From: Promethearchaeota archaeon
Lineage (GTDB): Archaea > Asgardarchaeota > Lokiarchaeia > Sigyniarchaeales > SOKP01
Length of the DNA stretch: 44,761 bases
NCBI GenBank assembly: GCA_048940645.1
Contig: JBHLOI010000030.1
Coordinates: forward strand, 1 to 44,761
Direction of reading: 5' to 3'
Under the pieces are notes generated by a model. The model did no database searches. It worked only from the letters and a program-made list of their open reading frames with translations, and was not told the DNA's origin. Both the position numbers and the translations under genes were made by a program. Positions 21,497 to 44,761 of this stretch are shown here, piece by piece. Within the stretch, counting starts at the first letter, position 1. Every line of letters begins with the position of its first letter.

Positions 21497-22079
21497 TTAT
21501 TTCTTTCCTATCCCATTTTCTTAAATAATTATTAAAATTTTCTAATGTAATTTCACGTGGAATTATGATCTTTCTTTCATACTCCCATCTTTTTATTTTT
21601 AACTGTAATTTCTTGTTTTTTTTGTAGAATTTTTGCGCTTTAGGGAACTCATCTTTAAATACTTCTTCTAACTGTTTTATACCTATATTTTTTAACTCTT
21701 CGTAATTATTAATAACATAATTACATAATGGATCTATTGATATTTGAAAATTGAAGGCATCTATACGTTTTAAAGCTAATGGATATGCTTGACAAGCTAT
21801 TGGTTTTTTTTCATGTATTATGCAGCCTTTTAAAGAATTATAAAAGGGACACCTTTTTTCAAAATTATCTAAATTTATTTTATATGTAATAACAATAATT
21901 TCCTTATTTTTTATATCAGGAAATACTAAATCTTCTATAACGCTAAATTTAATGTCGTTTTTTTCTGCAATTTCTATTAAATAATCAACTTCTTCTGGAT
22001 AAATAGGTATCCTTTTCAAACCTGGATTTTGAGTAATTTCATGACAACAAGTCCCACATTTTAAACATTGATATCTTAT
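21486..22079 (-). CDS. YkgJ/CxxCxxCC cysteine-cluster protein (extended to an ATA start at 22079)
   Basis: Upstream in-frame IRYQCLKCGTCCH, then CPF...C.IHE.KP.AC.AYP. Confidence 0.85.
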   Translation of the reverse strand: MRYQCLKCGTCCHEITQNPGLKRIPIYPEEVDYLIEIAEKNDIKFSVIEDLVFPDIKNKEIIVITYKINLDNFEKRCPFYNSLKGCIIHEKKPIACQAYPLALKRIDAFNFQISIDPLCNYVINNYEELKNIGIKQLEEVFKDEFPKAQKFYKKNKKLQLKIKRWEYERKIIIPREITLENFNNYLRKWDRKEIIAK

Positions 22080-35929: not shown

Positions 35930-36271
35930 TTAATCTTTATATGATGTTTTCATCTTTTCCTGAATCAATATATTTTCTTCTGGAAACCCTAAATCCATTA
36001 AGAATTTTTTAAGTTTAAATTTATGATCTCCTTGAAGTTCAATTTCATTTCCCCTTACTGTTCCCCCTGAAGCACACTTTTTTTTTGCTTTAGTTAAAAT
36101 ATCTTTCAAATTAGCATCAAAATTACCTTCAAATTTGATGACTGTAACCACTCGCCCCCATTTTCTTCTGTCATTGGTAATAATTATTTGTTGTTCGCCA
36201 GCACTTAAGCTATCACATATACATAGCTCTTTCGGAAAACTACATATAGGACAAATCTCGTCGTCTTTAAT
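35930..36271 (-). CDS. sui1: Translation initiation factor aIF1/SUI1 (extended to an ATT start at 36271)
   Basis: In-frame upstream IKDDEICPICSFPKELCICD...RRKWGR joins VTVI...KKCASGGTV...IELQGDH. Confidence 0.92.
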   Translation of the reverse strand: MKDDEICPICSFPKELCICDSLSAGEQQIIITNDRRKWGRVVTVIKFEGNFDANLKDILTKAKKKCASGGTVRGNEIELQGDHKFKLKKFLMDLGFPEENILIQEKMKTSYKD

Positions 36272-36447
36272 ACTCTTTTTTCACAACCTTTTATATTAAA
36301 AACTTAATATAGTACAGTATAAAAAATAATAGAATAAAATCTTATAAAAATCTTTTTTTTATTTTATGATTTTATCGTTAAACAATATTATAAAAATAAA
36401 TTCTTTCATATTATAATTAGAAAAATTCTTTATGATATGGTTTAAAA

Positions 36448-39321: not shown

Positions 39322-40926
39322 TCAATCTTCGCTCTTTTTAGAAAGTCCTGATGCGGCTATAACATCGTCTATTTTTAAGATCATTGAAGCTACTTCAGTA
39401 GCAGATTGAATAGCTTGAGTTAATACGGATAGAGGCTCGAGAACTCCTAATTCCATCATATTATCTGGTTTACCAGAATCAATATTTACGCCATAATCAT
39501 TTCCATTCTCTGATTCATGTTTTGATCTCAATTCAACAAGTGCATCTACAGGATTATATCCTGCATTTTCAACTAAAGTTTTGGGAATAATTTCTAAAGC
39601 ATTTGCATATATTTCAATTGCTAATTGTTCTCTTCCACCGATTGAGCTGGCAAAGGATCTTAATCTTTTTGCTAACTCAATTTCTGCAGCTCCTCCTCCA
39701 GATAATACATATGGAACCTCCATTGCAGCTTTTACCACAGAAAGAGCATCATTTATCATTCTCTCCGCTTCATCAACTACATGTTCTATTCCTGCTCTAA
39801 TTAAAATACTCACTGCCTTGGGATCAGCACATTCAGAGACAAAAATCATATTATCATCTCCAATCTTTTTCTCTTCTACTTTTCCAGCTTTTCCAAGGTC
39901 ATTTTCAGATATCTCGAATAGATTATTCACAATTTTTGCATTAGTGGCTCTTGCTAATTTCTCCATATCTGATTTTTTCACTCTCCTAACTGTAATTATA
40001 TTATTCTGTGCAAGAAAATTTTGCGCTTTATCATCAACTCCTTTTTGACAGAAAACCACGTTAGCCCCGATCTCTTTTAATTTTTTTACCTTATTTTTTA
40101 ACATATTTGCTTCTTCTTCAAGGAATTTATTAATTTGATCTGGAGTTTGCACTCGTATTTCAGCATCAAATTCCGTTTTTTCTATCTCTAATGCTGAATT
40201 TATCAATGCTATATTTGCATTTCTAACGGATTTTGGCATCATTGGATGGACAACTTCTTTATCGACAATAATTCCATCAATTATATTTGAATCTAAAAGA
40301 CTTTTTCCTTCTTTTTTAATTATTTGAATTTGTTCTAAATCAATAAATATGTGTTCGCCCCTGTTTTCTTTGATTTGACTAACAGCTTTTACTGCTATGT
40401 CCGCAAAATGACTTTTTGCTCCAGCAATCAATTTACTATTCATTGAAGTCTCTGCAACCTTGTGAAGTGTCTTTTTGTCTTCAATATCTATCTCTGTTGC
40501 TAAATCTTTTAAAATAGCCTTGCTTTTTACTAATGCTTTTCTATATCCGCGAAATATAATTGTTGGATGAACTGCTTGTTCCATTAATTCTTGTGCCAAA
40601 CTTAATAATTCACCTGATATAATCACACTTGTAGTAGTACCATCTCCAACTTTATCATCTTGTGTTTTAGCCACTTCCACCATCATTTTTGCTGCAGGAT
40701 GTTCAACATCAATAGTATCCAAAATAGTTGCACCATCATTGGTTATTGTAACATCACCAAGAGAATCAACAAGCATTTTATCCATACCTTTTGGACCTAA
40801 AGTTGTTCTAACTGCTTCTGATACTGCTTTTGCCGCAGCGATATTATTCTTCTGGGCATCTTTACCCCTCTTTCTTTCAGTACCCTCCTTTAAAATAAGT
40901 ATAGGGACTCCGGATAGTTGAGCCAT
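39322..40926 (-). CDS. ths: Thermosome (group II chaperonin) subunit
   Basis: [32 protein letters not shown]. Confidence 0.98.

Positions 40927-44605: not shown

Positions 44606-44761
<156 letters not shown>

Follow-up and report, generated by a model that had tools for sequence, protein, structure and literature searches.

The aIF1/SUI1 gene of the window (the whole 44,761-nt stretch of Promethearchaeota DNA analysed here) is very probably translated from an AUU codon at position 36271 of the minus strand, behind a Shine-Dalgarno (SD)-like element held at a fixed distance of 9 nt, and 74 of 77 named relatives show the same arrangement with no in-frame canonical start codon (ATG, GTG or TTG). 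The explanation that we favour as a whole, with a little better than even confidence, is that of an intact aIF1 gene whose AUU start would make synthesis of the factor self-limiting, like that of bacterial IF3 and eukaryotic eIF1. The features on which the argument turns are the following.

35930-36271, minus strand: aIF1/SUI1 coding sequence from ATT, 113 codons plus the TAA stop (35930-35932)
36149-36151, minus strand: GTG, the first in-frame canonical start in the ORF listing, yielding a 73-aa product
36215-36253, minus strand: zinc knuckle CPICSFPKELCIC, upstream of the first canonical codon and aligning with PDB 4MO0
36254-36256, minus strand: second ATT (coding for the Ile ahead of the first Cys), a minor alternative at which one NCBI record begins
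36267-36284, minus strand: out-of-frame mini-ORF GTG AAA AAA GAG TAT TAA, judged incidental
36269-36271, minus strand: ATT, the proposed near-cognate start (ATT in 71 and ATC in 3 of the 77 named relatives; coding periodicity from +4)
36272-36280, minus strand: 9-nt purine-rich spacer AAAAAGAGT, noncoding
36276-36281, minus strand: A6 run (T6 on the plus strand), suspected error or slippage site, not conserved
36281-36283, minus strand: in-frame TGA closing the aIF1 frame, read from the sequence
36281-36289, minus strand: SD-like element AGGTTGTGA, whose last three bases are the in-frame TGA; 7/9 match to AGGAGGTGA
36291-36300, minus strand: TATA-like TTTAATATAA, centred about 26 nt upstream of ATT, one of several AT-rich candidates, known from sequence only
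44607-44761, minus strand: 3' end of the 16S rRNA gene (...GGATCACCTCCT), located by motif search, which defines the anti-SD AGGAGGTGA

The aIF1 gene and its annotation

The minus strand reads AAGG TTG TGA AAA AAG AGT ATT AAA GAC GAC GAG ATT TGT CCT ATA TGT across the start region, and re-reading of the sequence bore out the original prediction in its letters and coordinates, with the ATT start in place and the knuckle lying ahead of the first GTG. In the ORF listing for the aIF1 frame, no ATG, GTG or TTG occurs between the in-frame TGA and the knuckle. Judged from its sequence, the gene is a true and intact SUI1/aIF1. The SUI1 domain (residues 26-97) clears the curated cut-off of Pfam PF01253 (62 bits vs 25.5), the protein read from ATT passes that of NF002096 (108.6 bits vs 98; profile positions 2-101 of 102), and its residues 5-103, from the EICP at residue 5, match the aIF1 of M. 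jannaschii in PDB 4MO0 with an E value of 2.3e-23. The M. jannaschii and P. abyssi proteins (4MO0, 5JB3) have both the zinc knuckle and the SUI1 domain in common with it; the solved 4MO0 chain starts two residues before EICP, and the ATT-start protein extends two residues farther at the N-terminus. Across 16 aligned aIF1 proteins from Asgard archaea, the archaeal knuckle, CxxC...CxC, keeps all four of its cysteines without exception. Translation from GTG 36151 would give a 73-aa product without the knuckle and without SUI1 profile positions 2 to ~17, approximately the first strand of the domain. The 3.83-Mb, 90%-complete assembly contains one copy of the SUI1 gene.

Some other genomes of the genus (L050, which is G007:C23, as well as G005:C60, L289 and L291) carry a second aIF1 paralog of about 60% identity, which has a textbook GAGGTGA followed by 8 nt and ATT or ATA, the GTG of its SD being in frame. 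At the RNA level, RNAalifold analysis of the region around the start in 19 family members gave zero conserved pairs. A 13-bp hairpin is predicted within the knuckle-coding sequence (36215-36253, minus strand; z -3.45 in a 95-nt window), to which alignment folding lends no support.

The AUU-initiated protein is already present in public records. The NCBI annotation pipeline calls a 113-aa MKDDEICPIC protein, equivalent to the ATT start, in many metagenome-assembled genomes (MAGs) of the family, and the recorded protein is 96% identical to the aIF1 of the window. Prodigal-type calls shorten aIF1 to 73-90 aa, and the 73-aa form is found in the protein collection (P0083). Several records (P0001, P0004 and others) bear the bacterial family name "stress response translation initiation inhibitor YciH", of which NF002096 is the source, on an archaeal aIF1. 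One ENA call, P0002 (MWKKSIKDDD...), comes from a Lokiarchaeial contig seemingly called under code 4 or 25, with a TTG start and TGA read as W. The aIF1 of S. solfataricus P2 was once annotated as frameshifted, according to a 2021 review (PMC8211752). A full-text literature search returned no account of near-cognate starts on archaeal aIF1, nor of aIF1 autoregulation.

Conservation of the AUU start and other readings of the leader

A search of named GenBank entries with a single protein query gave 80 loci, all in Promethearchaeota (Lokiarchaeota) MAGs, of which 77 could be evaluated. In 74 of these, GTGA is followed by exactly 9 nt and then by ATT (71) or ATC (3), and an in-frame canonical start is absent. 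The arrangement is present in every genus of the family (f1) but two, and all 18 of the same-genus species carry AAAGGTTGTGA, nine variable purine-rich nucleotides and ATT AAA GA. The proposed ATT lines up with the ATG, TTG, GTG or ATA starts of other genera, and within the family ATG, GTG or TTG stands at its position in no close ortholog. Given this conservation, the arrangement is far beyond chance, and the claim that aIF1 has a non-canonical AUU start is strongly supported by the comparison.

The boundary between noncoding and coding sequence can be placed closely. The spacer, always 9 nt long, varies freely within the genus (AAAAAGAGT, ATAAAAAGT, AGAAAGAAC, AACAAGAGT and AAAAGGAGT), and in the 75 distinct sequences used for column entropies it averages 0.93 bits and shows no 3-periodicity. 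From +4 on, the entropies of codon positions 1, 2 and 3 are 0.44, 0.28 and 0.88 bits in the same 75 sequences; in the four codons after ATT the third-position values are 0.50, 0.78, 0.98 and 1.90, with positions 1 and 2 at most 0.35. Many species have an in-frame TAA or TAG inside the spacer, and in many the in-frame stops number two or three. TAA opens the spacer of one large genus, giving TGA TAA in frame, and in L040 and L253 the sequence is TGA TAA TAG AGT ATT, in which a single sense codon separates the stops from ATT. From the sharp entropy boundary it follows that translation should begin at ATT or within one codon of it, and ATT is the sole near-cognate codon in that interval. We consider it highly probable, from this pattern of conservation, that AUU 36271 is the start of aIF1.

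Translation from the second ATT at 36256, directly before the first Cys, is a competing choice that we regard as improbable. P0027 (100 aa, MCAICSFPK) is annotated from this codon, and ATT, ATC or ATA at this site is also highly conserved; where a lineage has a canonical start, however, the codon specifies a conserved Ile (GICPKC). Its distance to the SD is 24 nt, and in the four codons that separate the two ATTs most of the variation falls on third positions, as expected of coding sequence.

A reading to which we give hardly any credence places the start at GTG 36284 or TTG 36286, the frame being regained by +1 frameshifting, slippage on the A run or read-through of TGA, or else explains the frame by an assembly error in the A6 run. 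Removal of one A would give MKKSIKDD; genera g10, g14 and g18 have the GTG in frame and a similar MK(K/N)xI N-terminus; and TGA is translated as W in one ENA call, MWKKSIKDD. Against this, the relatives have GTGAATAAAAAGT, GTGAAGAAAGAAC, GTGAAACAAGAGT, GTGAAAAGGAGT and GTGATAAGACAGC at the site of the A6 run with an identical frame relation in all, and more than 74 species, each assembled independently, retain the +1 offset despite the variable run, which refutes the homopolymer error or slippage offered as an alternative in the original prediction. No slippery site is common to the relatives, in which the GTG frame ends at various places or, in the ATC species, never; consecutive in-frame stops (TGA TAA, TGA TAA TAG) rule out read-through; and the GTG has no SD ahead of it and itself sits inside the SD motif. 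A search for a prfB-like conserved slippery site at a fixed stop was negative, the codon before the stop being variable (TAT, CAT). The leader does resemble those of prfB (RF2) and antizyme, the known cases of +1 frameshifting, in its SD-like element, its short upstream frame with a stop and its +1 offset, but it differs from them in having no conserved slippery codon and a stop whose position varies or which is missing altogether.

The mini-ORF and the in-frame TTG-TGA start-stop, once put forward as regulatory elements upstream of an AUU-started aIF1, are present in the letters and fail as conserved features. The mini-ORF occurs wherever GTGA, 9 nt and ATTAAA occur, and its TAA overlaps ATT because AAA follows ATT. 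In the ATC species (L047, L048, L058) its frame meets no stop nearby, and in L285 a TAG closes it ahead of ATT. The TTG of TTG-TGA is missing in g13 and g17, where the motif is CCGTGA or GGTCGTGA. Both features thus look like by-products of a GTGA placed 9 nt before ATTAAA, and a role of the TTG-TGA start-stop, termination-reinitiation from the mini-ORF and recoding of the TGA were each rejected for want of conservation.

With AUU 36271 as the preferred start, the element in front of it can be compared with the SDs of the genome. The predicted duplex of AGGTTGTGA with the 16S tail has an energy of -7.9 kcal/mol, at the 10th percentile (the strongest 10%) of ATG-start genes. The GTGA is found at this position in every motif-fitting species of the family (74/77 named relatives), and the paralog and outgroups have GAGGTGA, AGGTGA, GGAGTGA, GAGATGA or AGGAGG there. 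Because textbook SDs occupy the same place in the paralog and in other genera, the motif is read as a probable SD with a long and strictly fixed spacing. Across the genome, the share of G ahead of ATG starts climbs from 9% to 23-29% at -11 to -8, and GTGA peaks 6-7 nt upstream of starts with a lesser peak at 9; the 9-nt spacing of aIF1 exceeds this optimum of 6-7. It had been held similar to that of the thermosome gene (39322-40926, minus strand), which turned out to have GAGTGA, 6 nt and ATG, that is a spacing of 6 rather than 9, with a duplex of -4.7 kcal/mol that is weaker than that of aIF1.

The same region could be read as a leaderless or very short leader, with a 5'-terminal AUU and with GGTTGTGA acting as a promoter-proximal element in place of an SD. 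We see only a slim chance of this, although TTTAATAT lies about 26 nt upstream of ATT, TA at -1/+1 suits an archaeal initiator, and SD sequences were reported not to be prevalent in Prometheoarchaeum (PMC7531240). The motif complements the 16S tail and is replaced in the paralog and outgroups by GAGGTGA, AGGTGA or AGGAGG, and genome-wide there is a clear SD signal at -11 to -7 but a weak TATA-like enrichment around -30. In this genome SD-led initiation stands out clearly as the main signal, and hints of leaderless starts are few. Farther upstream (36320-36346, minus strand), a 27-nt block TATAAGATTTnnTTCTATTATTTTTTA in the interval that separates aIF1 from the divergent small-GTPase gene has hardly changed in four genera (g1, g12, g14, g17); it may serve both genes as a promoter or regulatory element.

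Near-cognate starts in other genes and other Asgard families

The use of near-cognate codons extends beyond aIF1. We scanned 2635 coding-like stop-to-stop frames for codons that lay no more than 12 codons past the upstream stop and 15 or more codons ahead of the first canonical start, and counted those preceded by an exact SD (at least 5 nt, aligned spacing 5-7). Such an SD preceded AUU, AUA or AUC in 32 of 507 cases vs 25 of 2783 for all other codons (odds ratio 7.4, p ~1e-12); the equally common AAT, TTA, TTT and TAT were SD-preceded in 1, 1, 0 and 0 cases. Apart from aIF1, at least 32 to 39 genes appear to have SD-led ATT, ATA or ATC starts (a few CTG or ACG) with the canonical start at least 15 codons away, and standard gene callers would shorten every one of them. 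Examples in the genome of the window (G000) are:

C11:13156, minus strand: candidate near-cognate-start gene
C120:731, plus strand: candidate near-cognate-start gene
C92:77733, minus strand: candidate near-cognate-start gene
C107:21979, plus strand: candidate near-cognate-start gene
C10:14324, minus strand: candidate near-cognate-start gene

In four genes (succinyl-CoA synthetase beta, GPN GTPase, nitroreductase and RagA-like GTPase) the Pfam domain begins before the first canonical codon. The near-cognate starts of succinyl-CoA synthetase beta and GPN GTPase are kept across the genus and family, less strictly than that of aIF1: most members of the genus and four further genera of the family start GPN GTPase with ATT or ATA, and 5 of the 23 genus members and three more genera start it with ATG; in two of these three genera aIF1 has an in-frame GTG. 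These comparisons indicate that near-cognate initiation is widely used in the family.

Some further observations concern individual genes. The succinyl-CoA synthetase beta gene of L121 (G021) has GTA at the position of ATT/ATA and ATC one codon upstream, either a variant or a shifted start. In the window, a probable ATA start (GTGATttaa ATA RYQCLKCGTCC...) is located at 22077-22079 on the minus strand, 20 codons upstream of the called TTG at 22019, a start that would drop the Cys-rich motif of that gene. No recognisable initiator tRNA was among 30 tRNA matches in the 90%-complete MAG, as searched with ARAGORN with and without introns, by motif and with Rfam RF00005; many tRNAs of this genome have long or multiple introns.

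Outside the family, 250 Asgard genomes were sampled and the start regions of about 50 aIF1 loci were inspected. Nine of 49 such loci have no canonical start before the knuckle and carry, behind strong SDs, ATA, CTG or ATT in its place, a codon that aligns with the ATG, GTG or TTG start of related genera where these are available. The arrangements are:

f2, genus g5 (two species): GAG(A/T)TGA, 6 nt, ATA CCA AAA
f5: GGTGA, 4 nt, ATA
f12 and f18: AGGAGG, 9 nt, ATA TC(T/C)
f10 (two genera): AGGAG, 10 nt, CTG TC(G/A) GAC
f7: GGAAGGTG, 7 nt, CTG
f17 (one genus): ATT TTC GAC

Sister species agree in three lineages (3/3 in g45 of f10, 3/3 in g33 of f18 and 2/2 in g21 of f7). Many of the remaining loci outside the family have GTG or TTG starts, and at the locus that we take to be that of Prometheoarchaeum the aIF1 start is TTG. 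A near-cognate start of aIF1 is therefore not universal in Asgard archaea, many of whose aIF1 genes use canonical starts. As a matched control we used the GPN-loop GTPase, whose P-loop lies 7-11 codons from the start, at 40 loci from the same non-family genomes and 7 from the order. A canonical start was lacking in none of the 47 control loci vs 9 of the 49 aIF1 loci, a difference to be taken as indicative, since relatives are not independent of one another. Within this genome, the five other initiation-factor genes (two aIF1A, and aIF2 alpha, beta and gamma) all start with ATG, and the weak start is thus specific to aIF1 among the initiation-factor genes checked.

These data bear on a reading in which aIF1 has an AUU start and no dedicated feedback, start-codon use being relaxed in the lineage and the gene having drifted to, or been set low by, AUU, AUA or AUC. 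We hold this to be possible, if on the unlikely side. The 32 to 39 or more other SD-led AUU, AUA and AUC genes, four of them Pfam-confirmed, suggest that a weak start could be merely tolerated, the near-cognate starts of succinyl-CoA synthetase beta and GPN GTPase are likewise kept, and a tubulin gene of an Asgard archaeon has been noted, in a 2026 paper, for its "rare ATT start codon" (PMC13394414). Mere relaxation accords less well with the excess of near-cognate starts in aIF1 over the GPN control outside the family, with the in-frame canonical start seen in 0 of 74 motif-fitting aIF1 relatives as compared with the ATG starts of GPN GTPase in the genus and in three other genera, and with the ATG starts of the other five initiation-factor genes. 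Moreover, discrimination against AUU of the kind known from S. solfataricus would entail some feedback automatically.

Self-limiting feedback and comparison with known systems

aIF1 destabilises initiation complexes on near-cognate codons. Since the factor rejects such codons, more aIF1 should lower initiation at its own AUU. In the mechanism that we propose, the SD-like element AGGTTGTGA, of an AGGTTGVGA type and 9 nt upstream, would position the ribosome; initiation would occur at AUU 36271, most likely by mispairing of the initiator tRNA at the third codon position; and a rising level of aIF1 would reduce initiation at this AUU, closing a self-limiting loop like those of infC and eIF1. According to two reviews (PMC4705826, PMC6237735), the aIF1 proteins of S. 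solfataricus and P. abyssi bind the 30S subunit and discriminate against non-cognate starts, that of S. solfataricus blocks 30S complexes on an AUU mRNA in vitro and permits those on AUG, and a weak start site is the means of autoregulation for IF3 as well as for eIF1. If the Lokiarchaeial aIF1 acts like that of S. solfataricus, the AUU start gives negative feedback automatically. The recurrence of near-cognate aIF1 starts in other Asgard families as compared with the GPN control, together with the ATG starts of the five other initiation-factor genes, supports the feedback; the feedback reading is made less specific by the fact that at least 32 other genes here start with AUU, AUA or AUC. Self-limiting feedback is in our opinion plausible, and given the AUU start we think it rather likely that the loop has a meaningful effect of some strength. 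A more speculative extension, which we put forward as a tentative idea more apt to be wrong than right, is that the AUU start serves as a set-point controller, by which aIF1 synthesis would be tied to the permissiveness of the ribosome and initiation at AUU, AUA and AUC would be held stable, with at least 32 genes dependent on it, among them those for succinyl-CoA synthetase beta, a GPN GTPase and a RagA-like GTPase.

If this extension is true, feedback on start-codon stringency would have been invented a third time, independently of bacterial IF3 and eukaryotic eIF1, in the archaea most closely related to eukaryotes and together with a full set of dependent genes. A codon-based version in an eIF1 homolog would, if real, make the logic universal across the domains and would bear on the evolution of stringent AUG selection toward eukaryotes. 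The wide use of near-cognate codons cuts both ways: it makes the start of aIF1 less singular, yet the level of aIF1 would then govern many genes. Standard gene callers probably mis-call dozens of other AUU-, AUA- or AUC-start genes in these genomes, and truncated or mis-called genes affect inventories of Asgard proteomes.

Among known systems, the nearest parallel in logic is bacterial infC, the gene for IF3. There, too, a fidelity factor is encoded behind a conserved, SD-led AUU, and aIF1 is likewise the sole initiation-factor gene with such a start among those checked in this genome, the five others having ATG. The negative-feedback logic would be the same (PMC4705826). The two cases differ in that IF3 and aIF1 are unrelated proteins, and in that AUU, AUA and AUC starts are common here to dozens of other genes. 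Eukaryotic eIF1 (SUI1) is related to aIF1 by a homologous SUI1 fold, by its role in rejecting poor start sites and by a weak start on its own mRNA; it regulates its own synthesis by way of an AUG whose Kozak context is poor (Ivanov et al. 2010, as cited in PMC6237735). In the Lokiarchaeial gene, unlike that of eIF1, the weakness lies in the codon itself (AUU here, AUA or CUG in other Asgard families) and not in the context of an AUG, and initiation would be led by an SD instead of by scanning.
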